Translations under genes and position numbers: made by a program | Shown: in pieces, positions 3,005 to 63,908 of the stretch | How positions within the stretch are numbered: position 1 is the first letter of the stretch | How the letters are laid out: each line of letters starts with the position of its first letter | The notes under the pieces: model-generated | What the model saw: only the letters and a program-made list of their open reading frames with translations | Database searches by the model: none | What the model was told of the DNA's origin: nothing | Assembly (NCBI GenBank): GCA_965217715.1 | Contig: OZ244563.1 | Location: 2,294,165-2,358,164 of the forward strand | Direction of reading: 5' to 3' | Origin: Candidatus Poribacteria bacterium | GTDB lineage: Bacteria > Poribacteria > WGA-4E > WGA-3G | Length of the DNA stretch: 64,000 nt

Positions 3005-3217
3005 TAGGGTTATTTAGTTTTAAGAATTATCAATTGATGGGTGTTACTCAAGGTTTATATTGTAGGTTGGGTTGAACCGCAGGTGAAACCCAACTTTTCC
3101 AGTATGTAAAAGCGTATCATGTTGGGTTTCGTGCCTCAACCCAACCTACGATAATATTATATATAATTAACGTGTGTGATAAAAAGCGTCAGAAATATAG
3201 AAAACTGAATAACCCTG
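3005..3217. mobile_element. MITE family A, copy 1 (TIR YAGGGTTATTTAGTT), carrying a REP doublet
   Basis: Ends tagggttatttagtttt / aaaactgaataaccctg; flanking direct repeat gccactgtt (2996-3004, 3218-3226); GTAG doublet at 3062-3149. Confidence 0.88.
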
Positions 3218-3247
3218 GCCACTGTTTGATGTGAGTGTTGAGAATTA

Positions 3248-4492
3248 CTATTCATCTTCTGCAGATAACATCATCATCTGCACAGCTACCATGAAATCAT
3301 TACTGGATTCCTTTTGTCTTCCAAGGGCACTATAAGCAAACGATCGACCTAAGTAAGGTTCTACGGAATTCGGTTGCAAGCGAATTGCTTCGTCAAAGTC
3401 AGTGATCGCCTCCTCAAACATCTCATGAATGCACCTCCACAGGCCACGGTTGTGATACGCCTCAGAAGAATTCGGTTGCAAGCGAATTGCTTCGTCAAAG
3501 TCAGCGAACGCTTCCTCACTCAACCCGAGGCTATCCTTAGATATCCCTCGATAATTGTAAGCATTAACGTTCTCTGGCTGCCGTAGAATCACTACATCAA
3601 AATCCTTGATAGCATCTTCAAAATAATTCAGATGATACTTTGCGAAGCCTCGGTCATAGTATGCTGTTATGTTCTCAGGATCCAGACGTATGGCTTCATC
3701 AGCGGATTTTATGGCATTTTCGTATTCCTCAATATCTTCATCCGATTCTTCAAAAAAACCATCAAAAGCATTGGGCATCATAGGATTGATGAAATCTAAA
3801 TCGCCTGGCAACATATCTTCGTCTTCAGGATTCGGCAGAAAGATCATACCTGGGAAATCAGGCAGCTCATCTTCTTCCCCTAACAAGTCCTTTAATATAT
3901 GGAGATTCTCACGGGCATCACTATTAGTAGGGTCTAAACGTATTGCCTTATCGTAGTCGGCAATGGCATCTTCATATTCCTCAAGTTCTTCTTTTAGGCA
4001 CGCTCGATAATAGAATGCATCACTGTTGTTGGGCTGCAGACGAATCGCTTCGTCAAAATTAGCAAGAGCTTCGTTATATAGTTCTAAATCCCCGTTTGCT
4101 AAGCCTCGGACCCAGAAAGCTTCAGCAAAATCTGGCTTTAGATTGATTGCGGTGTCACAATCTGCGATAGAAGCTTCCTCCTCACCGATGAAACTCAGTG
4201 CAAATCCACGCTTAACATAGGCTTCAACGTATTCGGGATTATGGTTGATTGCTTCATCAAAATCTTCAATAGCATCCTCATATTCACCTAAAGCATTCTT
4301 TGATATACCGCGATTGTAGTATGCCTCAACATAGTCTGGTTTAAGACGGATCGCAGCGTTGAAATCCTTAATCGCTCCTTTATGTTCTTGACGATTAGTT
4401 TTGGCAAGCCCTTGCTTGTTGTAAACTTGTGGACTCTTGGTTTTTCCTTGATTAGCACGTCTCTTTCGCTTATTAGCAGGTTTTTTAGCCAT
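3248..4492 (-). CDS. Tetratricopeptide repeat protein
   Basis: Two TPR blocks (AYYNRG...AIEDFDEAI..NP) separated by an acidic Pro/Met-rich linker; basic N-terminus; start MAKKPA. Confidence 0.9.
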   Translation of the reverse strand: MAKKPANKRKRRANQGKTKSPQVYNKQGLAKTNRQEHKGAIKDFNAAIRLKPDYVEAYYNRGISKNALGEYEDAIEDFDEAINHNPEYVEAYVKRGFALSFIGEEEASIADCDTAINLKPDFAEAFWVRGLANGDLELYNEALANFDEAIRLQPNNSDAFYYRACLKEELEEYEDAIADYDKAIRLDPTNSDARENLHILKDLLGEEDELPDFPGMIFLPNPEDEDMLPGDLDFINPMMPNAFDGFFEESDEDIEEYENAIKSADEAIRLDPENITAYYDRGFAKYHLNYFEDAIKDFDVVILRQPENVNAYNYRGISKDSLGLSEEAFADFDEAIRLQPNSSEAYHNRGLWRCIHEMFEEAITDFDEAIRLQPNSVEPYLGRSFAYSALGRQKESSNDFMVAVQMMMLSAEDE

Positions 4493-4546
4493 AATTAGCA
4501 TTCCTTAGTTTCATTATTTAGACAGTCGCACCAAGTTGGATCACTT

Positions 4547-4594
4547 CATTAACTATCATACCATATTCATCATTAACTATCATACCATATTCAT
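4547..4594. repeat. Perfect 24-bp tandem duplication in a divergent promoter region
   Basis: cattaactatcataccatattcat x2. Confidence 0.9.
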
Positions 4595-4641
4595 CGTTTT
4601 TATGCTATAATGTTAAAACTTAATTGAAGGGAGACCTTTGC

Positions 4642-5001
4642 GTGAAATCAGCGATAAAAGAATGGCTTAACAATTGCACCGAAAAACTCAACGCAGGTGA
4701 ACTAACGACGGAAGATTTGTCCGCTGTGCAAGCAGCACTGAATTCTGAAAAACAACTTGTCCTCTACCTTTATTCCAAATCAACCAATCTGCGTTCACCG
4801 ATTGGCTCATGGGCGTTATATGACCCAACAGCACCTGACGATCCAGCGTTGCCATCACAAGATCCGCCTTATGCCTCTGTGCTTGATGCGGTTCGCGACG
4901 GGTGGCGAATTGTGCAATTTCCGCGTCCCGAACTCTACAACTTTTCGGATGTTAAAAACGCTTATCTCAGCTTTGAATTCATTTTAGAAAAAATCGTATA
5001 A
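4642..5001 (+). CDS. Hypothetical protein, probably co-transcribed with the dioxygenase
   Basis: GGGAG RBS before GTG at 4642; 12-bp gap to the next gene. Confidence 0.7.
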   Translation: MKSAIKEWLNNCTEKLNAGELTTEDLSAVQAALNSEKQLVLYLYSKSTNLRSPIGSWALYDPTAPDDPALPSQDPPYASVLDAVRDGWRIVQFPRPELYNFSDVKNAYLSFEFILEKIV

Positions 5002-5013
5002 GGAACAACACAA

Positions 5014-5808: not shown

Positions 5809-5850
5809 TTTACGATAATAAGACTTACGCAAAATGGTGTTTGTGTAGGT

Positions 5851-10537: not shown

Positions 10538-11182
10538 ATGAAAACGAAAATTTTTACTCAAAACGTAGATTTGGCAGCTGCGGCTGCATGTGGTGGACTT
10601 ACCTTAATGCCGATGTTTCCACTCTTTATGGAGGCACAAGGTATCCGCTATAGTGTAGTCGCACTTGTCATTACACTTTGGGGATTTGTATCCCTAAAAC
10701 AGATGGACACAGAACCACAACGTGTTGAGCAAACCCCGCCTGTTTTTCACAAACCACAACATCGGAAAAGCAGTCGAAGACTCATCACTGCAGTGGTTCT
10801 CGCTTTGGTAATCGGGGTGACGCTGTTTGGTACAATCAAAATTATTGATGCAACACAGACAGATATAACCCCTTGCCTTGAATGGACACGGAAAGACTGT
10901 GTAAAGGAGGCGCAGCAACCGCCTTGTCCACAGCGACAACAACATTGTCGGGAATTTGGAATTCCCTCCTACAGATGTGTTGTAGGAGCGATCTCCGAAT
11001 CGCGAAAGAAATTGTCTTGCCCGCTGAACGCAGCGGCGCAAACCGGACAACCGTTCAAGTTGGAATGTTTTCCACGTGGGGAAAGACCGATTTGTCCGAA
11101 CTTAGACCCTATCCCGCGCTGCCCGCTGGACACTGCAGCGCGAACTGAACAACCTTTCAATAAGGAGAATAGCAATGAATAG
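10538..11182 (+). CDS. Hypothetical membrane protein with a Cys-rich tail containing in-frame REPs
   Basis: Two or three hydrophobic segments; the 3' half reads through REPs (10947-11005) and a 41-bp imperfect repeat. Confidence 0.55.
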   Translation: MKTKIFTQNVDLAAAAACGGLTLMPMFPLFMEAQGIRYSVVALVITLWGFVSLKQMDTEPQRVEQTPPVFHKPQHRKSSRRLITAVVLALVIGVTLFGTIKIIDATQTDITPCLEWTRKDCVKEAQQPPCPQRQQHCREFGIPSYRCVVGAISESRKKLSCPLNAAAQTGQPFKLECFPRGERPICPNLDPIPRCPLDTAARTEQPFNKENSNE

Positions 11183-23290: not shown

Positions 23291-23489
23291 TATAGTGGAT
23301 TTTAGAATTACATTGACACACTCACTCTGTGAATCAACGATGAATGCGCTTTTGGCATTCATCGGGAGAGAACTCCGATTCCCGACTACAAACGAGTCGC
23401 GATTCAGAGATCGCTCCTACAGAATATGAACAATTGTGAAAAACAACAAAACTGATACGTAACTAGCACAAGTTGTATAATTCACTATA
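23291..23489. mobile_element. MITE family B, copy 1 (TATAGTGGAT.. termini), carrying hairpin and REP cargo
   Basis: tatagtggattttagaatt / gtataattcactata; internal REPs ending in ctac at 23363-23420. Confidence 0.72.
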
Positions 23490-26420: not shown

Positions 26421-26501
26421 AATCAACACTTGCTTGTATAAAACCAAATTAACGATAATTATTCTGTTTTCGGAGGGTAGGTACGGTTTCTTAACCGTAC
26501 T

Positions 26502-26672
26502 TATGGTGAATTATTGAAATAATTATGCACTTCACTTGTGAATCAACGCCGAATACGCGTGTGGTATTCGGCGGGAGCGATTTCCGAATCGCGACGAAAC
26601 GCCTTGATAGTCGGGAATCGGAGCTCCCGACTACAGTTCAAGAATGTCCAATTAATTCTAAAATCTACCATA
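26502..26672. mobile_element. MITE family B, copy 2, carrying hairpin and REP cargo
   Basis: tatggtgaatta / taattctaaaatctaccata; a further REP lies just outside at 26477-26500. Confidence 0.72.
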
Positions 26673-26729
26673 ATAGATTGGAATCAAGTTAATTTTGGTA
26701 TAAGAAAACGGATGATGGGACGCTGAATT

Positions 26730-31139: not shown

Positions 31140-31261
31140 TATAGTAAAGCATAAAAAAATAGATATTTTGTCTCCAAATGTTACGTGGATTCTCCTTCGG
31201 TAAGCAAGGTTCCCTAACCTCGCTTGTTCAGAATGTCTTGTTAATTCTATAATCTACTATA
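31140..31261. mobile_element. MITE family B, copy 3, with a degenerate REP
   Basis: tatagtaaagcata / gaatgtcttgttaattctataatctactata (matches the right end of copy 2); gtaagcaaggttccctaacctcgc inside. Confidence 0.62.
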
Positions 31262-31302: not shown

Positions 31303-32631
31303 GTGGAATTAAATCTTGAACTTACAAGGCAAACTAAGATTTTGCTTGGCGTTTTGGGAGCTGTCCTTATTATTGCCGTTGCGACGCAATGGGGACCGGG
31401 ACTAAACAGTTTGATTTCCAATACCGACATGGAAAACAAACAACAAACCTTGCAAACATCTAAAGATTTGATAGCAGCATCAAAAATCTTGAAACCTATT
31501 GCAACCAGTTTATACAAAAAGGCTGGACTCGCAGACAATGAACAAGATAAAACTATTTTTGATGGAGCTTATTCTGATACGGTTATCCGTGAAAAAATTG
31601 ACTCAATCGTGAAAGAAGCTGGTATTCCCAAGAATTACCAATTAGATGTGGATCCAGTCCCAGGTAAAAAATTAGAGAAAATTTCAACGCAGGCACGACA
31701 AAACCTTGTTGTTTATCTTTATCAAAGCAAGTTGGAAACCGAACGAGATACGCTCAATGCTGAAATTGAAGCTGAACTTCAAGCGCAAACCGAAGTTGAA
31801 GCTGAACTTCAAGCGCAAACCGAAGTTGAAGAGGATGCTTTGGATATGTTGATGAATGCATGGTTAGATGAAGCAGGTGAGGACACCGAAACACCGAAAG
31901 AAGCTGAGAAATCTGACGAGGATCCGATTAATGAAAAATCTGATGAGGATCAGGTAACCGAAAAGTCTGATGAAAATTCCCTGGAGGCAAATGTAGAAGA
32001 GGATGTTGAAACACCACAAACACCTCAAGAGTCATACAAAAATCAAATCGATTCGCAAAATCCGGTGGATACTGAATCCCAATGGGAATTTACATCTTTT
32101 CCGGATACCATACCAAGTTCAATGCGAATTGAGTTGATCGAACTTATTATTTCTATGGCGGAGCAACATCTTGTAGGTGCTGAAATAAAAATGTTTGAAA
32201 AAGAATTCTATACTTCACAAACGGAGACAACCTCCGGGTTTTTCGGTATTGGCGCTAAAAAACCTATAACCGAGATCGGCTTTTATCCAAATAGCCAGAT
32301 TTCAGCCAAATTCACAGAACTCATTGATGATTATGGCGAAGAACTGGACAAGGAAAAACTTACCGTAGAACTACTTGGATATCTTGAAAAGATTGAATCA
32401 CAGATTACAGAACTTTCTCGGAAGTTACAAATGGCTCCCGTCACCTATTCGCCTGAAAGTTATACCGTAAAAATGAAGTTTAAAGCGGAACTTGATAAAC
32501 TCGTTAACTTTAATCGACTTATTGAAACCAGAATCAAATGGTTAATGGTAAGAGATCTCCAAATTTCCGCTGATAACAAAGATAATAAAATGAATGTGGA
32601 CATTCTTATGATTGCGGGGGTTTATCAATAA
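31303..32631 (+). CDS. GspM/PilO-like protein with a large acidic insertion
   Basis: N-terminal TM; C-terminal YTVKMKF..L.NF...IE....LMVRDLQI; position between gspL and gspD; 30-bp tandem repeat at 31766-31831. Confidence 0.65.
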   Translation: MELNLELTRQTKILLGVLGAVLIIAVATQWGPGLNSLISNTDMENKQQTLQTSKDLIAASKILKPIATSLYKKAGLADNEQDKTIFDGAYSDTVIREKIDSIVKEAGIPKNYQLDVDPVPGKKLEKISTQARQNLVVYLYQSKLETERDTLNAEIEAELQAQTEVEAELQAQTEVEEDALDMLMNAWLDEAGEDTETPKEAEKSDEDPINEKSDEDQVTEKSDENSLEANVEEDVETPQTPQESYKNQIDSQNPVDTESQWEFTSFPDTIPSSMRIELIELIISMAEQHLVGAEIKMFEKEFYTSQTETTSGFFGIGAKKPITEIGFYPNSQISAKFTELIDDYGEELDKEKLTVELLGYLEKIESQITELSRKLQMAPVTYSPESYTVKMKFKAELDKLVNFNRLIETRIKWLMVRDLQISADNKDNKMNVDILMIAGVYQ

Positions 32632-35600: not shown

Positions 35601-35636
35601 AATGGGATGGAAGATTTAGAGAATTCAATAAAATAA
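32631..35636 (+). CDS. gspD: Secretin GspD, copy 1
   Basis: N0 plus six NolW-like repeats, QVRIDIKILEV, KVPFLGDIPLLGRLF, IVFIITPHI. Confidence 0.93.
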   Translation: MKMCRNDVCPMWVQKLNIYLSVLVCFGLFVLIPGNLLAQQRGGQGTLEVAERDEETGEATRFNFDFTSRELKNVFEWLSRETDLTVIASENDIQGKQFALINLNNVTLDEVIEKIKTVLAQYNLTFVRVDSTLLVTTFEKAIVMNVPVKIIEANPELVEMTDEIQTYIIRLVNASASEQAGVLKPLLNKQANIFADTMTNALVITDVSSNVRRIVSILQFADEGERNPLKIAIIRLTYADAEALEDTLENVFEDNEADNKPSPTQVAMDPEELRQTIEQGLGVPLVEGMVEVEADSNSNSIILKAAEDNLVILREIIRHLDIAPDLSTDIRTYRLDYASAEDVATTLEEIITGESGRGGSRRSFDREDILEMMTYRRRQGDSSDLFQGIVGLVNVSRNDRLNIVIVSSDPRNFTIIEKIIEVLDQKQTENEFKMYLLEFADAATLKENLTALFEGEDTGGDSYRYNWWDRDRRDSNQQDSGFGVQGTVHIVEDIRLNALLISTSSQNFPMIDDLIKKLDVNLPDQEWGSRIFYLKYADAENVANLINSHYQGNQDDFSGGDSYYYYRYYLPQRQSTPQAQGALAGNVAAQPLTSHNALIVSTGTKRNFELIQDFIKRLDIPTPEVMIETTEIIRLEYATADSIAQVLAQVWQDPQAEDDEGFGFRRFFGSGNQDEEPADINSLFGKVTVYADPDTNSLIVTTRRRYLDQVRALVKKLDFVRGQVRIDIKILEVTLDETTKLGIEVAANEKKLGGLELAPGNPLVGNTKAELGLTQEISGFNYSLVTKEYMALLHTLIRENKVKTLSTPTITTRDSRPATWSSGRRIPYLQSVDTNSILGDTATQPLFNYDFIDPPVGINISLTPFIARSQAEENGKRTIGLDITNISASNFIEFTDFNAPITDDNSLSAYVDVEDGQKLIVGGIIRKKQKQVENKVPFLGDIPLLGRLFKSTETEVQDTEIVFIITPHIFDIKQPDDIEKQKEIADDWQKNGMEDLENSIK

Positions 35637-35812: not shown

Positions 35813-38800
35813 ATGATTACGAGGGAATTGTCCATGATATTGAAATATAGCAATTTGTTTAAAACATTATCACGACAACACTGCAAATTATACCTAATTT
35901 ATTTGGTGTGTTTCGGATTATTCGTTCTTATTCCGGGAAATCTGTTGGCGCAGCAGCGGGGTGGTCAAGGCACGCTGGAAGTTGCTGAACGGGATGAGGA
36001 AACTGGCGAAGCAATACGGTTTAACTTTGACTTTACGAGTCGAGAACTCAAGAACGTGTTTGAATGGTTGTCTCGTGAAACCGATCTCACTATTATCGCC
36101 AGTGAAAATGATATTCAAGGTAAGCAGTTTGCACTTATTAACTTGAATAACGTGACACTTGATGAAGTCATTGAAAAAATCAAAACTGTCCTCGCGCAGT
36201 ATAACCTAACCTTTGTTAGAGTTGATAGCACCCTTCTTGTCACTACCTTTGAAAAAGCAATTGTGATGAATGTGCCTGTCAAGATTATAGAGGCTAATCC
36301 TGAACTGGTTGAAATGACTGATGAGATTCAGACTTACATTATCCGATTGGTAAATGCGTCTGCATCGGAGCAAGCGGGTGTATTGAAACCTTTATTGAAT
36401 AAACAAGCAAACATATTTGCTGATACGATGACGAATGCGCTTGTCATCACCGATGTGTCATCTAACGTCCGCAGGATCGTATCGATTTTACAATTTGCTG
36501 ATGAAGGTGAGAGGAACCCATTAAAGATCGCTATTATCCGATTAACTTATGCGGACGCTGAAGCTTTAGAACAAACACTTGAAAATGTATTTGAAGATAA
36601 CGAAGCAGATAACAAACCGTCACCAACGCAAGTTGCTATGGACCCCGAGGAGCTCAGACAAACTATTGAACAAGGCTTAGGTGTGCCATTAGTTGAGGGG
36701 ATGGTTGAGGTTGAGGCAGATAGCAACTCAAACTCCATCATTCTAAAAGCCGCTGAGGACAACTTGGTTATTCTTAGAGAAATTATCCGTCATCTTGATA
36801 TCGCACCAGGTTTGTCAACCGATATTCGCACCTATCGTCTCGAATATGCCTCAGCTGAAGATGTTGCCACAACGCTTGAAGAGATCATCACTGGTGAAAG
36901 TACCCAGGAGGGTGGTAGAAGAAGTTTGGACAGGTGGTCTGCTGAGAAGATGCGTGCATATCGACGGGAACGTGGTGAGTCAGGTGATCTATATCAAGGA
37001 ATTGTAGGGACGGTAAATCTTTCTCGAAATGATAGGTTGAACATCGTTATTGTCTCTTCTGACCCGCGCAATTTCACCATCATTGAGAAGATTATTACTG
37101 AACTTGATCAAAAGCAGACGGAAAATGAGTTCAAGATGTATCTGCTTGAGTTCGCAGATGCTGCAACCCTCAAAGAGAATCTAACTGCCCTTTTTGAAGG
37201 CGAGGATACGGGTGGGGATAGCAATCGGTATAATTGGTGGGACAGGGGCAGAGATAATAACACAAACCAAGATAGTGCTTTTGGAGTGCAAGGAACTGTT
37301 CACATCGTTGAAGATATTAGACTCAATGCATTGCTCATTTCTACTTCTTCTCAGAATTTTCCGATGATTGACGATCTGATCAAAAAACTTGATGTCAACC
37401 TACCTGACCAAGAATGGGGTTCAAGGATCTTTTATCTGAAGTATGCTGATGCTGAAAATGTGGCAAATCTGATTAACACACATTATCAAGGGAACCAAGA
37501 CGATTTTAGGGGAGGTAGTAGCTACTATTATTACCGCTACTATCTTCCGCAACGTCAAACAACGCCGCAAGCACAAGGTGCGCTTTCAGGGAACGTTGCT
37601 GCACAACCTTTGGCGAGCCACAATGCCCTTATTATATCTACAGGGACGAAACGTAACTTCGAACTTATCCAAGACTTTATTAAACGGCTTGATATACCTA
37701 CACCCGAAGTAATGATAGAAACCACCGAAATAATTCGCCTTGAATATGCAACAGCGGATTCCATGGCTCAGGTGTTAGCACAAGTCTGGCAAGACCCGCA
37801 AGCCGAAGATGATGAGGGGTTTGGTTTTCGTAGATTTTTCGGTTCAGGAAACCAAGACGAAGAACCGGCTGACATCAATTCACTATTCGGTAAGGTTACT
37901 GTCTATGCTGATCCAGATACGAACTCCCTTATCGTCACAACTCGACGCCGCTATCTTGATCAGGTTAGAGCTCTTGTCAAAAAGCTTGATTTCGTTCGAG
38001 GACAGGTACGCATTGATATTAAGATACTTGAAGTCACCCTTGATGAAACCACAAAACTCGGTATTGAAGTGGCTGCTAGTGAAAAGAGACTCGGTGGTCT
38101 TGAACTCAGTCCGAGCAACCCACTTATTGGTAATACAAATGCTGAACTCGGTCTTGCCCAAGAGATTTCAGGATTCAACTATAGTTTGGTAACGAAAGAA
38201 TATATGGCACTGCTACACACCCTTATCCGTGAAAATAAAGTCAAGACGCTTTCAACACCCACAATCACGACACGTGACAGTCGTCCTGCTACATGGAGTA
38301 GTGGTCGGCGTATTCCATACCTACAAAGTGTTGATACCAATAGCATCCTTGGAGACACCGCTACACAACCACTCTTCAACTACGATTTTATTGATCCACC
38401 TGTCGGCATTAACATATCCCTCACGCCTTATATTGCAAGGTCGCAGGCGGGGGAAGATGGGAAACGGACAATCGGTTTAGATATTACAAATATCAGTGCC
38501 AGTAACTTTATTGAGTTTACCGATTTTAATGCGCCGATTACAGATGATAACGCTCTCAGTGTCTATATTGACATTGAAGATGGACAGAAACTTATCGTTG
38601 GGGGCATTATCCGTAAAAAACAGAAACAGGTGGAAAACAAAGTGCCTATACTTGGTGATATTCCTTTACTCGGGAGACTCTTCAAAAGCACCGAAACTGA
38701 AGTCCAAGACACGGAGATCGTTTTCATTATTACACCTCACATCATAGATATTAAGAATCCTGAAGACATAAAAAAACTGAGGCAGAAAGAGGATGATTGG

Positions 38801-38842
38801 CGGAAAAATGGAATGAAAGATATAGAGAATTCTGACAAATAG
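35813..38842 (+). CDS. gspD: Secretin GspD, copy 2 (near-identical tandem paralog)
   Basis: Colinear with copy 1; KVPILGDIPLLGRLF; start codon uncertain. Confidence 0.93.
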   Translation: MITRELSMILKYSNLFKTLSRQHCKLYLIYLVCFGLFVLIPGNLLAQQRGGQGTLEVAERDEETGEAIRFNFDFTSRELKNVFEWLSRETDLTIIASENDIQGKQFALINLNNVTLDEVIEKIKTVLAQYNLTFVRVDSTLLVTTFEKAIVMNVPVKIIEANPELVEMTDEIQTYIIRLVNASASEQAGVLKPLLNKQANIFADTMTNALVITDVSSNVRRIVSILQFADEGERNPLKIAIIRLTYADAEALEQTLENVFEDNEADNKPSPTQVAMDPEELRQTIEQGLGVPLVEGMVEVEADSNSNSIILKAAEDNLVILREIIRHLDIAPGLSTDIRTYRLEYASAEDVATTLEEIITGESTQEGGRRSLDRWSAEKMRAYRRERGESGDLYQGIVGTVNLSRNDRLNIVIVSSDPRNFTIIEKIITELDQKQTENEFKMYLLEFADAATLKENLTALFEGEDTGGDSNRYNWWDRGRDNNTNQDSAFGVQGTVHIVEDIRLNALLISTSSQNFPMIDDLIKKLDVNLPDQEWGSRIFYLKYADAENVANLINTHYQGNQDDFRGGSSYYYYRYYLPQRQTTPQAQGALSGNVAAQPLASHNALIISTGTKRNFELIQDFIKRLDIPTPEVMIETTEIIRLEYATADSMAQVLAQVWQDPQAEDDEGFGFRRFFGSGNQDEEPADINSLFGKVTVYADPDTNSLIVTTRRRYLDQVRALVKKLDFVRGQVRIDIKILEVTLDETTKLGIEVAASEKRLGGLELSPSNPLIGNTNAELGLAQEISGFNYSLVTKEYMALLHTLIRENKVKTLSTPTITTRDSRPATWSSGRRIPYLQSVDTNSILGDTATQPLFNYDFIDPPVGINISLTPYIARSQAGEDGKRTIGLDITNISASNFIEFTDFNAPITDDNALSVYIDIEDGQKLIVGGIIRKKQKQVENKVPILGDIPLLGRLFKSTETEVQDTEIVFIITPHIIDIKNPEDIKKLRQKEDDWRKNGMKDIENSDK

Positions 38843-39587: not shown

Positions 39588-39617
39588 ATCTCTTTAACAC
39601 ACAACAAGAGCAACATA

Positions 39618-41333
39618 CTAAGAAACTTTTTTGACATACTGATTCAGCGCCAAGATTGGAAAAACAGAGGCATAAATCGGATCGCTATACCCACCAATTA
39701 CTTCCCAATAAATACCGACACAACTCTCTTGCCAAGAACCATTTTCTCTTTGATTCTTTATGAGAAACTCAACTCCTTTCTCAGCAGCCCGATTTTCTCC
39801 ATCAGCAAGTAAAAGGGCATAAGTACACCATGCTGTCTGTTCCACGGTGCTATCAGTTGGGTTACCAAACATGTCTTCTCCCCAACCACCGTCCACATTT
39901 TGTGTCTGTTCCAACCAACGAATACCACGTGCAATCTCTGGCACATCTCCAAAACCTGCTTTAATGAACGCAACAAGCGCACATGCTGTCCCGTAGGTGC
40001 GTTTTGCTAACCAAAGATCATCCCAGTAGCCATCACGATGAATATTAGCACGAAGCCATTGAACACCACGGTTTACAAACATTTCATTGTCACCGTCTGC
40101 AAGTAATGCCTCAATTGCATGTGCGGTAATGCTAACACATCCAACATCACCTTGCCCAGGTTGATACGTGCTCCAACTGCCATCTGTCCCCTGATTCTGT
40201 TTCAACCACTCAATCCCGCGTTGAATAGCACTGTTTGCATCTGCGGATGTAAGTTTTGCTCGAATTATAGCAAGGGTTGCCAAAGCAGTATCATCTGCAT
40301 CACTCGGAAGAGAACTATCGCGCATGCCAGAAAACGCCCACCCACCGTTGTCATTTTGATGATCAACAAGCCATTGTGCTGCTTTTTTGACCGGCTCCGA
40401 GTTATCGGTATAATTTGCTTCAATCTCTGTTAAGGCGATAATGCTAAGGGCTGTGTCCCACACGTTGAGATTTATGGCTTCTCTACAGCCACCGTCTGGA
40501 TTCTGCGTGGCACGCAGCCATTCAATACCTTTTTCAATTAACAGTTGAATCTCAGAATCATTACTACTATTGTTGTGGAATTCAATCAGCGCCAAAACAG
40601 AGAGTGCAGTGATATAATTCACACGAAACCAACTGCCATCACTCAAAACACGTGCTTTCAACCAAGCCACCAACGCATTTATGATTTCAAAACGTTTTGT
40701 TGTATTTAATTCTATTAAAATAAAGACTGGAACTAAAGTATGTTGTTCAGCAATAAACAACTCTTCAAAAAGAGATGTGTTAAAAAGGTCTACGGGAGGA
40801 AGTTTGTTTCTCGGAGGCTTCAACAAGACACGCAGAATTGGGATGCGCGTTAAGAGTTTGACAAGTCTCATCAACGGCAATGCTTTTTTCGAAACGGTCA
40901 ATTTTTGCCAGTCAAATCGATTGAAAGATGCGTAGGAAAGTTTAACTAAAGCGAGGTCAAGCGGGGACTGTGGAATGCAGGACAGTGTTTCCTGAAGCTG
41001 CGGTGTTGACACATTTTCAGATGCTTGTTCCAAAATCAATTGCGTAAACAACGTTGCATCCGGATTTGATTGATTTGCAGTATCCAATCCCCACGCACCA
41101 TCTTCGTTCTGGTTTTTTATGAACCAATCAATCAACGCTTTTTCTGGTGTTTGTCCTTGCGCAAGTTGAATCCAAGCATAAGCACAAGACGGAAACGTAC
41201 TTGAGGAAAGTTGTCCTTCAAAGTTTCCGTCCACATGCTGCTGTGTCAGTAATAAATCAATAGCATGTGCTAAGGCAGATGTAGTCTGTTCCTTAATTTT
41301 TTCTGTTAGTTGGGGAGGTTGGTTTTGTCTCAT
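39618..41333 (-). CDS. Squalene-hopene cyclase-like class II terpene cyclase
   Basis: DADDTA (DXDD) motif, VWDTAL, about seven QxxDGxW (QW) repeats, YGT, STVEQTAW. Confidence 0.85.
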   Translation of the reverse strand: MRQNQPPQLTEKIKEQTTSALAHAIDLLLTQQHVDGNFEGQLSSSTFPSCAYAWIQLAQGQTPEKALIDWFIKNQNEDGAWGLDTANQSNPDATLFTQLILEQASENVSTPQLQETLSCIPQSPLDLALVKLSYASFNRFDWQKLTVSKKALPLMRLVKLLTRIPILRVLLKPPRNKLPPVDLFNTSLFEELFIAEQHTLVPVFILIELNTTKRFEIINALVAWLKARVLSDGSWFRVNYITALSVLALIEFHNNSSNDSEIQLLIEKGIEWLRATQNPDGGCREAINLNVWDTALSIIALTEIEANYTDNSEPVKKAAQWLVDHQNDNGGWAFSGMRDSSLPSDADDTALATLAIIRAKLTSADANSAIQRGIEWLKQNQGTDGSWSTYQPGQGDVGCVSITAHAIEALLADGDNEMFVNRGVQWLRANIHRDGYWDDLWLAKRTYGTACALVAFIKAGFGDVPEIARGIRWLEQTQNVDGGWGEDMFGNPTDSTVEQTAWCTYALLLADGENRAAEKGVEFLIKNQRENGSWQESCVGIYWEVIGGYSDPIYASVFPILALNQYVKKVS

Positions 41334-41411
41334 CGTTCATATTTTAGAAATGAAATGTGAAAGGAGTATAACATATTTCAGTGAGTTAGACAACTTTATT
41401 CTGAAACGCTC

Positions 41412-41656
41412 CAGGGTTATTTAGTTTTCGGTTTTTCTATTATATTTTATCACAAACGTTAATACTTCATTATAGTATCGTAGGTTGGGTTGAACCGCAG
41501 GTGAAACCCAACATTTACAGCCTGTAAAGGGTTACATGTTGGGTTTCGTGCCTCAACCCCGACAAATGCCGAAAAGCGCATTTAGCGTTGATTCCCTACA
41601 GTATAAACTCTCAGTAACGCTCATCAGTCGAAAATTCTTAAAACTAAATAACCCTG
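41412..41656. mobile_element. MITE family A, copy 2, carrying a REP doublet and a hairpin insert
   Basis: cagggttatttagtttt / aaaactaaataaccctg; flanks gaaacgctc / caaacgctc. Confidence 0.88.
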
Positions 41657-41726
41657 CAAACGCTCCCAGAGCCATTCAGTTTGAGTTTTTTCAATTTGTG
41701 GGTTGGGGGTCACTCCTATAAAAGAA

Positions 41727-41785
41727 ATCGGGGTTACAAACCCGATGAATACCTTAAGGCATTCATACCGTTGATGCCCTCCTAC
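41727..41785 (-). repeat. GTAG REP interrupted by an AATCAACG-type hairpin
   Basis: atcggggttacaaa[cccgatgaatac..gcattcataccgttgatg]ccctcctac. Confidence 0.75.
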
Positions 41786-41889
41786 AAGAATGTATCACGA
41801 CAATTGAATGGCTCTGAAAACGCTCCATTAAATGCTTGTCAATCAAAGGGATTTATGATAAGATGATACGCAATCAAAGGAGAGAGAAA

Positions 41890-51284: not shown

Positions 51285-51405
51285 TAGGGTTATTTAGTTC
51301 TCCATATTTTCGGTTATTCTTGAATGCCCCTCTTGCTGTAGGAGCGAGCTCCAGCTCGCGACTTTTGACGAAAATGTGCAAAAACCCTAAAACTAAATAA
51401 CCCTG
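51285..51405. mobile_element. MITE family A, copy 3, carrying a different single REP
   Basis: tagggttatttagtt / aactaaataaccctg; perfect flanking repeat cgtgctatgt; cargo gtaggagcgagctccagctcgcgac (51338-51362). Confidence 0.9.
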
Positions 51406-55716: not shown

Positions 55717-57369
55717 TTAACGATCAACTTCAATACCTTTTTCCAAATTATTTATCCGTTCGCGAAATCTATGTATCGGTGTCATATCCTGAATCGGGTT
55801 TTTCGCAACGTAGATTTGCCTAAGATTATCTAAGTTCTCAACAACACTCACGTTGCGAATCTTATTATGCTCAACTTCTAAGCGCGTCAACTCCTTCACC
55901 GTTGTAAGTGGTGTGATGTCCACAATTTGATTATGATTAAGTTCCAAACGTGTCAATTGGGTCAATGATAAGAGCGACGTGATGTCCACAATTTGATTAT
56001 TGCTAAGACCTAACGACGTTAGTTGTGTCATCTCTGATAGTGGTTTGATATCGGTTATTTTATTTTGCCCAAGCCTTAACTCAACCAACTGCGTTAATCC
56101 TGCAAGCGGTGTGATGTCACTAATTTGGTTACTATCAAGCCATAACTGTCCCTGCTTTGTCAATTCCTTAAGTGGTGTAATATCGTTAATTTGATTTTTG
56201 CTGAGTCCTAAATGGGTAAGCTTCTTCAATCCCGCAATCGGCGCAATATCACTAATCTGACAATTATTCAGATATAATGCACTCAGCTGCGTTAGTCCTT
56301 TGAGTGGTGTGATGTCCCTGATTTTATTCTTATCTAACACTAAAGAGCTAAGTTTTGTCAACCCAGCGACAGGTGTAATGTCGGTAATTTGATTACTATC
56401 AAGTAACAAAGAACTTAGATTTGTCAACTCCGAAACAGGTGTGATGTCGCTGATTTTATTCACACTCAAATCTAAGTAGGTCAACTTAGTCAAGTCAGCA
56501 AGAGGGGTTATGTCTGTAATGTTATTAATTCGGAGTACTAACTGCGTAAGCTTCGTTAATTTTGCGAGTGATTGTATATTGCTAATCTGATTGCTCCCAA
56601 TATCTAATTCTGAAAGTTCTGTTAAATCAGCGATTGATCTGATGTCCGTAATTTGATTATCACTAAGCGCTAACTTTGTAACTTCTGTTAGGTTTGCAAT
56701 TGGTTCAATGTCCGTAATTCGATTATGATTTAGCATTAACCAAGTAAGTTGTGTCAATGTTGAGATCGGTTTGATGTCACTAATGCCATTAGAATCAAGT
56801 TGTAAATTCTTGAGCTGCGTCAATTCTGTAAATGGTGTAATGTCACTGATTTCAATTCCGTTAAGGCGTAAGTCCGTAAGTTGTGTCAATCCTGTGATTG
56901 GGGTGATGTCGTGGATGCGATTATCATCAAGACTCAGTTTCGTAAGTTGTGCCAACTCAGAAAGGGGGGCGATGTCGTAGATTTGATTTCTGTCAAGCGC
57001 TAAGTCTGTAAGTTTTGTCAATCCGATGAGGGGTGTGATATCCACAATTTGATTACGACGCAGACCTAACGTGGTTAGATTTGTCAAACCGGCGAGCGGT
57101 GTGATGTCCACAATTTGATTATAGTTGAGCGACAAACTTGTCAAACCCGTCATTTTTTCGATACCTGTCAAATCGCTGATACCTTTAGTCCATGTAGACA
57201 ACGTTTCTAACGTTTCTAACTTCTTTTGCGTGATAGGTGCATCAGGCGATAAACCTAACGCCTCCCGCACCGCAGCCTCTAAGTTTGGATCAGGAATCTC
57301 TACCGGTTCTGGTGGTGAACAACTGGCAAATACAATGAGAAACAGAAAAGGCAGGCAAATATGTTTCAA
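55717..57369 (-). CDS. Internalin-type leucine-rich repeat lipoprotein
   Basis: Lipobox FASC, IPDPNL cap, many 22-aa LxxLxLxxNxIxDIxPL repeats; TTG start. Confidence 0.93.
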   Translation of the reverse strand: MKHICLPFLFLIVFASCSPPEPVEIPDPNLEAAVREALGLSPDAPITQKKLETLETLSTWTKGISDLTGIEKMTGLTSLSLNYNQIVDITPLAGLTNLTTLGLRRNQIVDITPLIGLTKLTDLALDRNQIYDIAPLSELAQLTKLSLDDNRIHDITPITGLTQLTDLRLNGIEISDITPFTELTQLKNLQLDSNGISDIKPISTLTQLTWLMLNHNRITDIEPIANLTEVTKLALSDNQITDIRSIADLTELSELDIGSNQISNIQSLAKLTKLTQLVLRINNITDITPLADLTKLTYLDLSVNKISDITPVSELTNLSSLLLDSNQITDITPVAGLTKLSSLVLDKNKIRDITPLKGLTQLSALYLNNCQISDIAPIAGLKKLTHLGLSKNQINDITPLKELTKQGQLWLDSNQISDITPLAGLTQLVELRLGQNKITDIKPLSEMTQLTSLGLSNNQIVDITSLLSLTQLTRLELNHNQIVDITPLTTVKELTRLEVEHNKIRNVSVVENLDNLRQIYVAKNPIQDMTPIHRFRERINNLEKGIEVDR

Positions 57370-57396
57370 AATGTTATGCTCCTTTTAATGTCAAGT

Positions 57397-59799
57397 TTAG
57401 GGATCAACCTCAATGTCCACATACAAATCAGAAATTTCTTTGCGAAGTCTGTGAATCGGCGACAAATCTTGAATTGGGTTGTTCTTAATATGTAGAACTC
57501 TTAAATACTTCAACTTTTCAATAGTGCTAATATCCTCAATTTGGTTATCCGACAAAAATAACCTTCTTAAGTTTGTCAATTCTGCAAGCGGTGTGATGTC
57601 ACGGATTTGATTTTTGGTTAGTTCTAAGCTTGTGAGTTGTGTCAACTCTGTAAGTGGGGTAATATCACTAACCTCACTGTCCTCAAGCGATAATTGCGTA
57701 AGGTGTGGAAATCCGGTAAGAAGTGAAACAAGGTCATTTAAATCACGAAGGTTTTTACCACCAAAACCTAACCATGTCAATCTTGTTAAACTCACAAGTG
57801 GTGAGAGATCGTTAATTTGATTACCACCAAGCGACAATGACGTAAGTCGTGTTAATTCAGCAAGAGGTGTGATGTCCCTAATTTGATTTCTGCTTAGATT
57901 CAAACCTGTCAGTTGTCTTAATTCAATAAACTGCTGCGTATCGCTAATTTGATTACCGCTAAGATGCAAGATCGTAAGATTTGTAAGTTCAGTAAGGGGT
58001 GTAATGTCTTGAATTTGATTATCGTCAATGAGTAATCGTCTAAGTGATTTTATAGTTGCAATATTCGTAAGATCACTAATCTGATTTCCTCTTATCCATA
58101 GCGTATTAAGTTGTGATAATTTTTCAAGTGGAGGCACATTAGTTATTTTATTATTTTCAAGCCTTAAAGAATGAAGCTGTGTTAATTCAGTTATCTGGGT
58201 AATAACACTAATTTGATTTTTATTCATTTGTAGGTAACTGAGCTGCTTCATATTTTGGATTGGTGTAATATCACTAATTTGGTTTTCATCAAGCCATAAT
58301 GATCGAAGGTTTCTCAAGTTCTTGATAGGTGTGATGTCGGTAATTTCATTACTGTTAAGATATAGCCAGGTTAATTGCGTTAATTCTGCAATGGATGCTA
58401 TGTCGGCAATTTGATTGTTCATGAGATACAGCTCAGTTAGCAGTGTTAATCCAGCGAGTGGTGCAACATTGCAGATCTTATTATTCGTAAGATCTAACGT
58501 TTTTAGTTGTGTCAAATTAGCAAGCGGTTCGATATCGCTAATCTCATTATTTCTGAGATCTAACGTTTTTAGTTGTGTCAAATTAGCAAGCGGTTCGATA
58601 TCACTAATCTCATTATTTCTGAGATCTAAAGTTTTTAGTCGTGTTAATTTTCCAAGTGGTGTGATGTCACTAATTTTATTATCATTTAGGGATAGTGATG
58701 TAAGGTAAGGCAAACCTTCAAACAACGAAACAAAAGGTGTCAAATCTCGAATCTCAGTCTCTCTAAGTGCAAAGTACGAAAGTCGCTTTAATCCACTAAT
58801 AACTCCAAAGTCTTTGATTTGGTTTCCTCCAAGCGATAAATTCCTAAGCTGAGTCAATTCAGATAAAGGTGAGATATCGCCAATCTGATTGCTGCCAAGA
58901 TATAAGCTCATCAGTTGTTTCATCTCCGCAAATGGTGTGATGTCCCGGATTTCATTATTACCAATAGATAAGGTGTGCAGTTGCGGCAAATTTACTACCG
59001 GTGTAAGGTCTATTATTTTATTATTCCATAAAGATAAACTTTCCAATTGTACAAGTCCTACCAAAGGTGTGATGTCTTGGATTCTATTTCTTATAAGGGT
59101 TAAATCTGTAAGTTGTTTCAATCCTCTGAGCGGGGTGACATCACTAATTTTATTTCCCTCGAGATTTAGGGTGTCAAGTTGTATTAACCCAGACAAAGGT
59201 GTAATATTGCTAATTTCATTATACCTGAGATTTAATTCCTTGAGTTGTATTAATCCTGTGAGCGGCGCAATATCACGTATTTTGTTGCTATTAATTTCTA
59301 ATTTCCTCAGTTGTGTTAACTCCTTGAGAGGTGTTATATCTTTAATACGATTTTCATATAGCGTTAACTCCCTAAGTTGTGATAATCCTTCAAGTGGCGT
59401 AAGATCACTGATTTGATTGTTATCAAGTGATAACCTACTGAGTTGTGTTAATCCAGAAATGGGTGTGAGGTCCATAATTTGATTAGAATTTAGGTGTAAA
59501 GTCGCCAGATTTCTTAATCCTGCAAGAGGTGTGATATCTGCAATTTGACCACCAATAAGTGATAAACTTGTTAAACCCGTCATTTTTTCTATACCTGTCA
59601 AATCGCTGATGCCTTCAGTCCATGTAGACAACGTTTCTAATTTTTCTAACTTCTTTTGTGTGATAGGTTCATCAGGAGATAACACTAATGCCTCCCGAAC
59701 AGCAGCAGCTAAATTCTGATCGGGAAACTCTACAGGTTCCGGTGGTGAACAACTGACAAATACAATGAGAAACAGAAAAGGCAGGCAAATTTGTTTCAT
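57397..59799 (-). CDS. Internalin-type leucine-rich repeat lipoprotein (longer paralog)
   Basis: Lipobox FVSC, FPDQNL cap, about 30 LRRs; near-exact 66-bp tandem repeat at 58490-58638. Confidence 0.93.
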   Translation of the reverse strand: MKQICLPFLFLIVFVSCSPPEPVEFPDQNLAAAVREALVLSPDEPITQKKLEKLETLSTWTEGISDLTGIEKMTGLTSLSLIGGQIADITPLAGLRNLATLHLNSNQIMDLTPISGLTQLSRLSLDNNQISDLTPLEGLSQLRELTLYENRIKDITPLKELTQLRKLEINSNKIRDIAPLTGLIQLKELNLRYNEISNITPLSGLIQLDTLNLEGNKISDVTPLRGLKQLTDLTLIRNRIQDITPLVGLVQLESLSLWNNKIIDLTPVVNLPQLHTLSIGNNEIRDITPFAEMKQLMSLYLGSNQIGDISPLSELTQLRNLSLGGNQIKDFGVISGLKRLSYFALRETEIRDLTPFVSLFEGLPYLTSLSLNDNKISDITPLGKLTRLKTLDLRNNEISDIEPLANLTQLKTLDLRNNEISDIEPLANLTQLKTLDLTNNKICNVAPLAGLTLLTELYLMNNQIADIASIAELTQLTWLYLNSNEITDITPIKNLRNLRSLWLDENQISDITPIQNMKQLSYLQMNKNQISVITQITELTQLHSLRLENNKITNVPPLEKLSQLNTLWIRGNQISDLTNIATIKSLRRLLIDDNQIQDITPLTELTNLTILHLSGNQISDTQQFIELRQLTGLNLSRNQIRDITPLAELTRLTSLSLGGNQINDLSPLVSLTRLTWLGFGGKNLRDLNDLVSLLTGFPHLTQLSLEDSEVSDITPLTELTQLTSLELTKNQIRDITPLAELTNLRRLFLSDNQIEDISTIEKLKYLRVLHIKNNPIQDLSPIHRLRKEISDLYVDIEVDP

Positions 59800-62249: not shown

Positions 62250-62259
62250 GCTTTTTCCT

Positions 62260-63612
62260 TTATGCCCATCTCGGATTTCTGCCACCAAACCGCTGCTCGC
62301 TAATGTTCCACAATTCTGTCAATCCCAGTTGTCGAATGTGGTCCAAACCGGGTAAGCACGGATCGTTTATTCGGGTTAACCACTGCTGCAGTTCCGCTTC
62401 TAATTCTTCTCGGAGCGTTTGTGAATTAGGGTCGTCAATGAGATTGTTCATTTGATATGGGTCGTTATCGTTATCGTAAAGCAGCCAACCTGTTCCGTCA
62501 TGATGGCGTGCATACGTGTAGCGATGTGTTCGGACACCGCGCCATTCGCGGAGACCGAAATTGAACCCTTCACTTCCGTGTAATGGGATTTCAAGCAGGA
62601 CTGATTGCGGTTCGTCAATTGTTTTACCGAGCATTGCGTCTGAAAGGTCAACGCCCTCAACGCCCTCTGGAATTGGTAGGTCGCATAAGGATAGCATTGA
62701 TGGCATAAAATCAACGAGGCTGAGTAAAGTGTCGCGAGTAACGCCTGCGGGGATTCTGCGGGGCCAACGAATCATAAAAGGGATACGACTTGATTCGTCC
62801 CACGGACGTTCTTTTCTGTTATGCCCGTGGCTACCGAGCATATCTCCATGGTCAGATGTATAAACAAGGATAGTATCTTCAGCAATACCGATTTCATCAA
62901 GGGCATCCATCATGCGCCCGAGGTTTTCATCTAAAGCGGTGATATGGGCGTAGTAGCCTGATATATCCTTTCGCGTGGCAGGTGTATCTACCGCGTTCGG
63001 ACGTAATTGAATTTCCTCTGGTGGATACATCTCTTTATACCGCTCTGGCACATGTTCATACGGATTATGTGGCGGTCCCCAACTCACATAAAGACAGAAA
63101 GGTTCGTCAGCATGGTCTCTGCAGTATTTAATCGCCTCATCGGTTTGGAATTCCGGTTCGTAGCCTTCAATCTGCATCTTATTCCCATCGGAATCGTGGT
63201 ACGGAGCATTGAAATAGTTATGATGGCAGTTCCATCCGACCCAATGATCAAAACCGAACCGCATCTCAGACGTAATAAACTTATCTCTTGGCATTCCACC
63301 GAGATGCCACTTACCAATATAGCCAGTTGCATATCCAGCATCTTTAAATACCTGTGCAATTCCCGTTTCAGACAACGGAAGCGGCAAATCGTTGGAAACT
63401 GCCTTGTGGCTTAACGGGTGTTTGCCGGTCATCAGGCATCCGCGCGCAGGCACACATATCGGGACGTTGGTAAAGGTGTTTGGCAAGAACATCCCCTCTT
63501 GTGCAAGTTTATCCATAGCCGGTGTCTGCACTTGCGGGTTACCTGCACACCCGACATCACATTGACGGTGTTGATCACCAAAAACAAAGATTAAATTGGG
63601 TTTTCGTTCCAT
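62260..63612 (-). CDS. Sulfatase (formylglycine-dependent)
   Basis: CVPAR (CxPxR), GKWHL, PPHNPY, TSDHG. Confidence 0.95.
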   Translation of the reverse strand: MERKPNLIFVFGDQHRQCDVGCAGNPQVQTPAMDKLAQEGMFLPNTFTNVPICVPARGCLMTGKHPLSHKAVSNDLPLPLSETGIAQVFKDAGYATGYIGKWHLGGMPRDKFITSEMRFGFDHWVGWNCHHNYFNAPYHDSDGNKMQIEGYEPEFQTDEAIKYCRDHADEPFCLYVSWGPPHNPYEHVPERYKEMYPPEEIQLRPNAVDTPATRKDISGYYAHITALDENLGRMMDALDEIGIAEDTILVYTSDHGDMLGSHGHNRKERPWDESSRIPFMIRWPRRIPAGVTRDTLLSLVDFMPSMLSLCDLPIPEGVEGVDLSDAMLGKTIDEPQSVLLEIPLHGSEGFNFGLREWRGVRTHRYTYARHHDGTGWLLYDNDNDPYQMNNLIDDPNSQTLREELEAELQQWLTRINDPCLPGLDHIRQLGLTELWNISEQRFGGRNPRWA

Positions 63613-63803
63613 TTTTTCTCCTATTTCTAATACTCATAAGGTTACGCAGTTTTTACGATTTATTCAATAATTATGACTAAATGGTGCAATTTTTAGCAGA
63701 GTTCTGAGTTTCCAGCGTGTTTACAATCAACATAGTCTGTAGGTTGGGTGGAGCTTGTGAAACCTAAATCAACGCTATGAATGCACTGTTGGCATTCAGC
63801 GGG

Positions 63804-63908
63804 TGTCAATTTAAGAACATAATACCAGATTATCTCATGTGGGAGGGTTTTGTAAGCCCGATTTATTACCGTTTACGTATTTTGCACATAAAGTGTCTTA
63901 AGTTGACA
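63804..63908. mobile_element. MITE family C (TGTCAAYTTAAGA termini) carrying a REP
   Basis: tgtcaatttaaga / tcttaagttgaca; internal gtgggagggttttgtaagcccga; adjacent REP at 63739 and hairpin at 63767-63803; single copy, no clear target duplication. Confidence 0.62.

Follow-up and report, generated by a model that had tools for sequence, protein, structure and literature searches.

Short non-autonomous repeats in bacteria are usually treated as two separate classes. [quoted passage not shown] In the available portions of two sources, REPIN duplications are put at ~1e-8 per generation and those of MITEs at ~1e-5, and the two are treated as separate kinds (PMC3116915; bioRxiv 10.1101/2021.07.10.451892). 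Here, we describe a 64,000-nt stretch of DNA from a Candidatus Poribacteria bacterium (the window; C1:2294165-2358164 of genome G000, a 5.66-Mb assembly of 16 contigs that is 92.9% complete) in which REPs and REPINs lie inside the inverted ends of miniature elements, which we call shells. We find it probable that REPs and REPINs were captured a few times at shell centres and then multiplied, as hitch-hiking cargo, by DDE transposition of the composite.

Several described systems resemble parts of this arrangement, and our comparisons apply to the portions of the cited papers that were available. REPIN-RAYT systems (PMC3116915) share with this genome GTAG-footed palindromes in inverted doublets of ~88 nt, a single-copy RAYT accompanied by the same REP, and naked extragenic copies. 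They differ in that many REPINs here sit inside DDE-type MITE ends and are copied along with them and in that the doublet most often seen pairs two unlike hairpin variants, H2 with H1, as a heterodimer. MITEs of the Nezha/ISNpu3 type share their ends with a full IS, are flanked by direct repeats and have empty and filled orthologous sites (PMC3184786). The elements described here are like them in all of these respects and in their stable predicted hairpins; their interior, however, is a separate mobile hairpin family that is also found outside the shell and in unrelated shells. In Pseudomonas putida and P. fluorescens, degenerate GTAG-1 REP units and unrelated stem-loops form composite inverted repeats, described together with TIRYT/TIRtron (PMC3733652). 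Those composites likewise fuse REP units with other palindromes in hundreds of copies, but they flank tyrosine transposase genes, to which they are attributed, whereas at least one of our shell families (family A) has the ends of a DDE element of the ISAs1 type and duplications of 9-11 bp. Finally, ISs that target REPs (IS1397 and IS621, PMC3184786; ISPpu9, PMC12288879) show a comparable physical association of a DDE- or IS110-type element with a REP, but the topology here is reversed, with the REP inside the element, except possibly in family C. The available text of PMC3116915, PMC3337134, bioRxiv 10.1101/2021.07.10.451892, PMC3733652 and PMC3184786 does not describe REPINs inside DDE-type MITEs, and the literature searched holds nothing on REP-in-MITE composites in Poribacteria.

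An earlier note, made from the letters of the window, had marked seven shells belonging to three families (three of A, three of B and one of C). All seven are present where the note placed them, and each contains at least one footed hairpin. These hairpins are GC-rich and have a foot of GTAG, GTGG or GTGA, and a repeat scan of the window independently recovered the common ends and hairpins. The shells, with the REPIN of the first, are the following (window positions):

3006..3216 (211 bp), unstranded: MITE A211, with ISAs1-type IS ends and the 10-bp direct repeat GCCACTGTTT at 2996-3005 and 3218-3227.
3062..3149, plus strand: the 88-nt REPIN at the centre of A211, made of two inverted GTAGGTTGGGTTGA...AAACCCAAC REPs.
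23291..23489, plus strand: MITE B1, with TA flanks, a AATCAACGC hairpin (H4), a GGAGAGAACTCCGATTCCCGAC REP and an inverted GTAGGAGCGATCTCTGAATCGCGAC REP.
26502..26672, minus strand: MITE B2, of the B1 shell family in reversed orientation, with H4 at the foot of the doublet's other REP.
31140..31261, minus strand: MITE B3, a B-type shell with a single GGTAAGCAAGGTTCCCTAACCTCGCTTG hairpin (H9-like).
41413..41655 (243 bp), unstranded: MITE A243, with the 9-bp direct repeat AAACGCTCC; one of three copies of 243 bp.
51286..51404 (119 bp), unstranded: MITE A120, with a target duplication of 10-11 bp, (C)GTGCTATGTT.
63804..63908, unstranded: element C, whose TGTCAAYTTAAG inverted ends enclose a GTGGGAGGGTTTTGTAAGCCCGAT hairpin.

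Members of one shell family hold different hairpin types, as the note had claimed: A211 and A243 differ in this from A120, and B1 and B2 from B3. It had also reported that the window encodes no transposase, and none of the genome's 69 DDE_3 matches of the IS630 family, 4 Y1_Tnp matches or ISAs1-type IS copies, the three classes searched for, lies inside it. Our searches for REPs and shells covered the whole G000 assembly, and ~60-70 kb from each of three relatives of the same genus (G002, G011 and G007) served for the comparison of orthologous sites.

Family A reveals most directly where a shell comes from. The window copies have the termini AGGGTTATTTAGTT...AACTAAATAACCCT, and a genome search with a 14-mer of the end (at most 2 mismatches) returned 186 matches that form 57 inward-facing pairs. 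Of these pairs, 45 are no longer than 420 bp and 6 are full-length, at 1302-1303 bp; the ends AGGGTTATT(T/C)AGTTTT are common to both groups. The full-length IS (1303 bp) contains an open reading frame (ORF) of 384 aa that scores 235 bits on NF033564 (the NCBIfam ISAs1 family, cut-off 70), and this transposase also matches Pfam DDE_Tnp_1_assoc and DDE_Tnp_1. Because the short elements align with both ends of the intact IS, with the REP occupying the place of the lost IS interior, family A is an ordinary IS-derived MITE, a deletion derivative of the 1303-bp ISAs1-family IS. The short elements have these lengths and cargoes:

119-120 bp: 13 copies (the A120 class), with a single GTAGGAGCGAGCTCCAGCTCGCGAC hairpin (~51337-51361 in the window copy).
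189-191 bp: 14 copies (the A190 class), with an inverted doublet of GTAGGTCGGGTAGAG.. REPs.
211-213 bp: 9 near-identical copies (the A211 class), with the 88-nt inverted REP doublet and flanking duplications that are all different.
243 bp: 3 copies (the A243 class), with an A211-type doublet plus an H4 hairpin nested at the GTAG foot of one REP.
92, 108, 160, 186, 401 and 415 bp: 1 copy each.

Throughout the family, cargo is near-identical within a length class, and the flanking duplications of 9-11 bp differ from copy to copy. Since the copies are near-identical including the hairpin and yet have different duplications, each class must have had a founder that already contained the hairpin, which was then copied along with the shell.

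Family B is far more numerous. Its termini are imperfect inverted repeats, TATRGTRRAT..., in the form TA-TAGTRRAT...ATYYACTA-TA, and the two ends are imperfectly complementary (~19/29 positions by eye). In the window, B1 and B2 carry the AATCAACGC hairpin with a GTAGGAGGGAAC.. / GTAGGAGCGAT.. doublet, and B3 carries a GGTAAGCAAGGTT.. hairpin; B2 has a 94% identical copy at C1:3865160. A strict 20-mer of the left end (at most 3 mismatches) has 264 genomic matches, and in nearly all of them a hairpin begins ~35 nt in. The two ends are related but not identical, and a profile built from 468 of them gave 719 end matches and 242 pairs genome-wide, with the following length modes:

135-138 bp: 96 copies.
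170-171 bp: 44 copies.
204-205 bp: 27 copies.
Near 238 and 272 bp: smaller groups.

The step of this ladder is 34 bp, i.e., one H4 unit. The canonical order is left end, none to several H4 units, H2 (GTAGGAGGGAACTCCGATTCCCGAC), a spacer of ~13 nt, an inverted H1 (GTAGGAGCGATCTCCGAATCGCGAC) and right end. No 14-mers in the genome are commoner than those of H2 and H1. Convergent doublets of forward H2 and inverted H1 number 318, and the right-end motif follows in 222 of them, at exactly 39 nt in 184. B-type ends also enclose H3 doublets and H9 and H8 cores, and two copies of 75 bp are coreless. The enclosure of unrelated cores (H1/H2, H3, H9, H8 or none) identifies the ends as the constant part of family B and the core as the variable one.

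All copies of B read TA-TAGTRR...YYACTA-TA, and the empty sites of B1 and B3 in relatives (see below), at a flank identity of 82-90%, fit insertion at TA. The genome also harbors an intact, nearly identical IS630-family element in 45 copies, always with C-TA...TA-G flanks (CTAG; e.g., C1:329864), whose terminal TAGTGGAT is common to the B terminus; the likeness ends there. Together with the 6 intact ISAs1-type copies, these 45 copies point to recent IS bursts in the genome.

An element of this shape might instead be an extended REPIN, such that in family B, and perhaps in others, the whole ~137-bp palindrome is moved as single-stranded DNA by a RAYT or an IS200-like enzyme. The B core is a REP doublet and its arms are complementary, so that the whole element may fold as one hairpin; the genome yielded no IS with B ends, and a duplication of TA is not proven. 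Moreover, tyrosine transposases flanked by long inverted repeats and composites of GTAG units have been described, as the available text of PMC3733652 relates. This alternative has to face the occurrence of one end type around unrelated cores and in the coreless copies, which makes the B end, and not the REP, the recognisable conserved part. In addition, none of the 4 Y1 genes of the genome is flanked by B ends or by H1/H2, and the TA flanks and shared TAGTGGAT fit an IS630/Tc1 style of insertion. Thus, we consider movement of the whole palindrome by a tyrosine transposase unlikely.

A further family, D, is absent from the earlier note's list and was found via the H3 hairpin. Its ends are ACGTGAGTTTGATAA...TTATCAAACTCACGT, its flanks show duplications of ~7 bp, and 65 pairs occur genome-wide, including two classes:

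D122: 48 copies, with H3 as cargo.
D143: 10 copies, with the same 88-nt REPIN as A211.

In the C1:3332226 region, one MITE sits in another: an H3-carrying D122 with a clean 7-bp TACCGTA duplication lies inside a B-type shell that holds an H3 doublet. Further palindromic shells were also seen around H3.

To determine how shells and cargo are gained, we used the three relatives, which are 82-90% identical to G000 over aligned blocks and syntenic with much of the window. The A120 site is uninterrupted in G011 and holds one copy of the target, an exact empty site that, with the 9-11-bp direct repeats, supports target duplication by family A. At the B1 site, G002 and G011 show a TA and no element. 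The B3 site is empty in G007, and the orthologous position in G002 holds a diverged copy whose hairpin is of the same kind. For B2, all three relatives lack a whole stretch of ~280 bp (about 26421-26698). The reverse case is seen at window position 39590-39618, where a B element is present in G002 and the window has none. A bare doublet varies in the same manner:

10946..11006, unstranded: a naked REP doublet without a shell (inverted GTAGGAGGGAAT.. plus forward GTAGGAGCGATCTCCGAATCGCGA); the orthologous sites in G002 and G011 lack it.

These filled and empty orthologous sites indicate that gain or loss affects whole units, in composites as in bare REP doublets, and the clean empty sites for A120, B1 and B3 indicate that shell and cargo were inserted as one unit. 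The earlier note's view of the shells as mobile miniature elements is borne out by these empty sites and by the target duplications. One locus has a different history. At 41299-41830 (534 bp, comprising A243 and further hairpins), G002 and G011 have instead ~910 bp of unrelated, coding-looking sequence, and relative to these two genomes the A243 locus is a replacement rather than a simple insertion.

Element C stands apart from the other shells. Its termini are TGTCAATTTAAGAAC and GTCTTAAGTTGACA, and it is bracketed by REP-like sequences in direct orientation (63739-63765 and ~63912-63937), with an H4-like hairpin just before it. Its own hairpin resembles units found beside a RAYT gene (C1:404091-404564, below). 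A genomic search with a 15-mer of the C end gave 68 hits, with only 1 element paired, and the BLAST matches of the window copy elsewhere in the genome are all of half length; C is therefore weak as a family. It looks different from A, B and D in having REP copies outside its ends, and in several copies those ends begin inside a REP stem. Such an arrangement would be expected if shells had formed around pre-existing REPs, either because a REP-targeting IS decayed or because the C-type state is ancestral, so that the REP would be older than the shell; ISs that insert into REPs are known (IS1397 and IS621, in the available text of PMC3184786). In A, B and D, however, the REP lies inside the ends, the target carries no REP in those relatives where the site is empty, and A shells align to both ends of their IS with the REP where the interior was lost. 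We thus regard shell formation around existing REPs as highly improbable.

We then quantified the association between REPs and shells. A REP catalogue assembled from 11 seeds, with mismatches allowed, contains at least 2574 loci, and noncoding DNA was defined by removing ORFs of at least 120 aa (83.9% of the genome). The 47 kb of paired A and B shells contain 645 REP loci, or 13.6/kb, and other noncoding DNA (866 kb) holds 1804, or 2.08/kb, a 6.5-fold difference obtained with a seed-based catalogue and a simple ORF mask. The non-shell class includes undetected shells, and the contrast is underestimated because that class still has D shells, H3 shells of the B type and B copies in which one end is degenerate. 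REPs are thus enriched in shells, the comparison on which the earlier note had made its proposal depend.

With so many loci in the genome, one could ask whether seven loaded shells out of seven reflect anything beyond chance or composition, since 28% of 20000 length-matched random windows of other noncoding DNA also hold a REP. Yet a catalogued REP is present in 236 of the 242 paired B shells, and D shells are loaded in 58 of 62 cases. For A, 43 of 45 are loaded by eye, the only hairpin-free copies being those of 92 and 415 bp; the catalogue registers 31 of 45, a lower figure because it misses the A120 variant. All of these counts represent copies related by descent rather than independent events. 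A rough count by lineage still finds 12 of 14 shell subfamilies loaded (binomial tail 1.2e-5 at p = 0.28), and the cargo occupies a fixed central position. Chance has, in our estimation, a negligible claim.

The same association is seen when the REPs themselves are taken as the starting point. Among 1477 REP clusters, 569 (1176 of the 2574 loci) have both of their 40-nt flanks repeated at least 5 more times, compared to 110 of 1500 random noncoding 40-mers; 370 clusters have one repeated flank and 538 have neither. By type, both flanks are repeated in 105 of 128 clusters of H1/H2 with H4, in 2 of 58 of the RAYT-linked GTGG type and in 11 of 64 of the GTAGGTTGGGT type. Hairpins linked to a RAYT are accordingly mostly free, and those of very high abundance, for which no RAYT is visible, sit mostly in shells. 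A test for inverted flanks (best 20-nt window, at least 15/20) was positive for 24.8% of REP clusters, versus 6.2% with swapped flanks and 1.5% at random sites, but this test was too insensitive because B ends are imperfect, and the flank-repeat test was used instead.

The earlier note had left it open whether REPs hitch-hike on shells or preferentially target them, and our data separate the two. We chose hitch-hiking because, within a class, cargo is identical in sequence and position while the duplications differ and because shell and cargo are jointly missing in relatives; only a few founding captures call for preferential targeting. If shells had instead spread empty, with REPs then entering each copy at a centre favoured by RAYT, one could readily account for the higher REP density in shells, for cargo that is always central and for the presence of H4 on either side of the doublet in B (beside H2 in 50 elements and beside H1 in 16), which does indicate some turnover after capture. 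That course of events is difficult to reconcile with discrete lengths and with the same cargo at the same position throughout a subfamily. Empty shells are also rare (2 of 45 in A, 6 of 242 in B), and B3 and its G002 ortholog hold the same kind of hairpin. Separate targeting of each shell is rejected by the uniform cargo within subfamilies and the joint absence in relatives, and we hold it to be very unlikely. Hitch-hiking after a few captures remains the reading that we think likely.

What the cargo is outside shells follows from the tyrosine transposase genes. A Y1_Tnp profile search of the genome matched 4 genes, and RAYTs were assigned with NCBIfam NF047646 (cut-off 80):

C1:2183071-2183625: RAYT (198 bits), 111 kb upstream of the window, with GTAGGTTGGGTTGAGCTTGCGAAACCCAAC lying 5' of the gene and two inverted copies lying 3' of it.
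C1:404091-404564: RAYT (124 bits), followed by four tandem GTGGGAGGGGTTTACAACCCCGAT units, which the hairpin of element C resembles; the GTRGGAG foot is shared with the H1/H2/H3 group.
C1:2965656-2966000 and C1:973649-973993: IS200-like Y1 genes, each flanked by repeats of its own in tandem or inverted arrangement (..CCCGTAGGGACGATATGTTTATAG and ..CCGCTCCAGCGGAGCGATATG..); the assignment comes from the one of the two that was scanned (78.7 bits, cut-off 55).

Both RAYTs are flanked by their own REP type. The REPs around the first have the same GTAGGTTGGGTTGAG...GAAACCCAAC foot and stem as the cargo of A211, A243 and D143, with a different loop. The GTAGGTTGGGT.. REPIN of these three shells is a GTAG-footed imperfect palindrome arranged in inverted 88-nt doublets, and a RAYT is flanked by the same REP. 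It also occurs naked, at 87-88 nt, in unique DNA at C1:1008862, 4016811 and 4404165. The 88-nt REPIN is therefore an independent module that is found free, in A shells and in D shells. The repeat type of the IS200-like gene at C1:2965656-2966000 has 143 genomic copies and none in A or B shells. Among the best 80 relatives of the RAYT at C1:2183071-2183625, the first six are from Candidatus Poribacteria (71-90% identity) and are followed by Nostocales (~62-66%). GTAGGTTGGGT is present in the 600-bp flanks of 45 of these 80 relatives, from several phyla, indicating that the RAYT-REP pair is conserved across phyla. The likeness of the RAYTs of Poribacteria and Nostocales, the latter also having this REP foot in their flanks, suggests either an old shared RAYT-REP lineage or a transfer between phyla.

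The earlier note had ascribed REPs to RAYT enzymes and shells to DDE transposases. RAYT genes with matching REPs do exist for the A211/A243 type and, approximately, for C, and none of the 4 Y1 genes is flanked by H1-H4. A full IS sharing the shell ends exists for A (1303 bp, 235 bits for ISAs1), and none was found in the genome for B, C or D.

The nesting also goes one level deeper than a REP in a shell. H4 is a 34-nt hairpin, AATCAACGCnnnATGCGC....GGCATnnnGCG (i.e., AATCAACGC..GGCAT..GCG), with 367 units in 336 arrays genome-wide. In the window it occurs at these positions:

23331-23365: in B1.
26540-26573: in B2.
~41557-41592: in A243.
63766-63803: before element C (H4-like).

The sequence upstream of H4 arrays is GTG in 169, CCA in 79 and ACG in 31. 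At the other end, the closing GCGG runs straight into a REP stem that lacks its foot, which is GAGGG (H2) in 95 arrays, GTTCG (H3) in 41 and GAGCG (H1) in 29; H4 adjoins H5 and GTAGGTTGGGT-type REPs as well, and it replaces one to three bases of the REP foot. Window copies B1 and B2 exemplify both placements of H4 within family B. From the array flanks and both of these placements, we conclude that H4 sits exactly at the GTAG foot, in no fewer than five REP types, and that its tandem expansion produces the 34-bp length ladder of family B. No enzyme was linked to H4. The earlier note had spoken of a two-tier system; H4 is a third tier, so the tiers number at least three. The overall interpretation of the earlier note is partly supported.

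Tiny hairpin repeats called SDR (small dispersed repeats), reportedly described in Nostoc punctiforme by Elhai and colleagues in 2008 and perhaps the nearest precedent, are said to lie within one another, within tandem repeats and within mini-transposons. Compared in arrangement, the 34-nt H4 at the GTAG foot of other repeats appears alike. The systems would differ in that nesting here is the rule for several shell families and the cargo includes REPINs with a cognate RAYT. The host is also not a cyanobacterium: PF00124 (Photo_RC) is absent, GCGATCGC has 36 sites on C1, and the nearest RAYT relatives are from Candidatus Poribacteria, which together rule out a Nostoc-like host.

These observations can be placed in a mechanism. 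On a few occasions, a RAYT, which is an HUH tyrosine transposase, would have brought its REP or REPIN into the middle of a miniature element, and a DDE transposase recognising the inverted ends of the shell would then have multiplied the composite. Hairpins would thereby gain a second, probably faster route of replication, and the most abundant of them may owe much of their copy number to shells. The hitch-hiking half of this interpretation is well supported, and the founding captures at shell centres are what we infer. A fuller joint reading, which we offer tentatively and on balance doubt, is a three-tier nested replicator system kept up throughout an order of sponge-associated bacteria. REPINs would be freed from a slow, domesticated RAYT by residing at the apex of DDE MITEs, with H4 as a distinct, ultra-small mobile element. 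The palindrome of the MITE would expose its centre as a single-stranded loop, a favoured site for HUH integration; the composites would be multiplied by DDE transposases of three or more unrelated kinds (ISAs1-type, TA-type and a type making 7-bp duplications); and H4 would integrate precisely where the RAYT recognises its substrate, at the GTAG foot, in five REP types.

Several points weigh against capture followed by DDE transposition. None of H1, H2, H3 and H4 flanks any of the 4 Y1_Tnp genes in this 92.9%-complete genome, which leaves the first entry of these hairpins into shells a supposition. The REPINs of A190 (GTAGGTCGGGT..) and A211 (GTAGGTTGGGT..) are related and share a common shell arm; their "different" cargo may partly reflect divergence after a single capture. 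The cargo-free copies (A of 92 and 415 bp, two B of 75 bp) could have arisen by deletion and need not be empty shells of the original kind. Two empty sites are the basis for the TA duplication of B, and TATA could belong to the ends, with no duplication at all. Candidate autonomous elements also failed to appear. For B, 5 long strict-end pairs in the genome (1233-2663 bp) enclose ordinary ORFs, 9 long pairs among the unpaired profile matches have no recurring length, and none of the 116 IS630-family termini in the genome matches the B-end profile. The only candidate for D, a 1432-bp pair, encloses a 344-aa frame that by eye is beta-propeller-like and does not look like a transposase, and no IS with C ends was found in G000. 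The DDE reading of B and D rests, accordingly, on inverted ends, flanking duplications and variable cores, and not on a cognate IS. The seed-based REP catalogue and the simple mask, described above, belong on the same side.

Two other features of the window were observed. On the minus strand at 55717-59799, two huge ORFs (550 and 800 aa) consist of dozens of 66-nt (22-aa) repeats that by eye have a leucine-rich-repeat look, and ~2.8 kb of this stretch is missing in G011. A gene of ~1000 aa is tandemly duplicated at 32631-35636 and 35813-38842 (3206-bp period, 87-95% identity), and the spacer between the duplicates varies among the relatives.

Composite B extends well beyond this genus. Matches to the B2 right arm plus REP doublet, at 81-96% identity, are present in 18 of 18 genomes of the genus and 21 of 21 of the family, in 14 of 16 genomes of one genus in a second family, in 4 of 11 of a third family and in 0 of 7 of a fourth. 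On these matches, it is old and widespread in the order. Within G000, larger repeated units contain 46% of catalogued REP loci, which accounts for the bulk of the genome's short repeats. If REPINs are routinely carried by MITEs, the copy number and diversity of REPs could not be read as the work of RAYT alone, REP families could persist or spread without a cognate RAYT, and population models of REPINs would have to include replication by a second route. For tracing recent transposition among these bacteria, loaded shells that have target duplications also provide clean markers.

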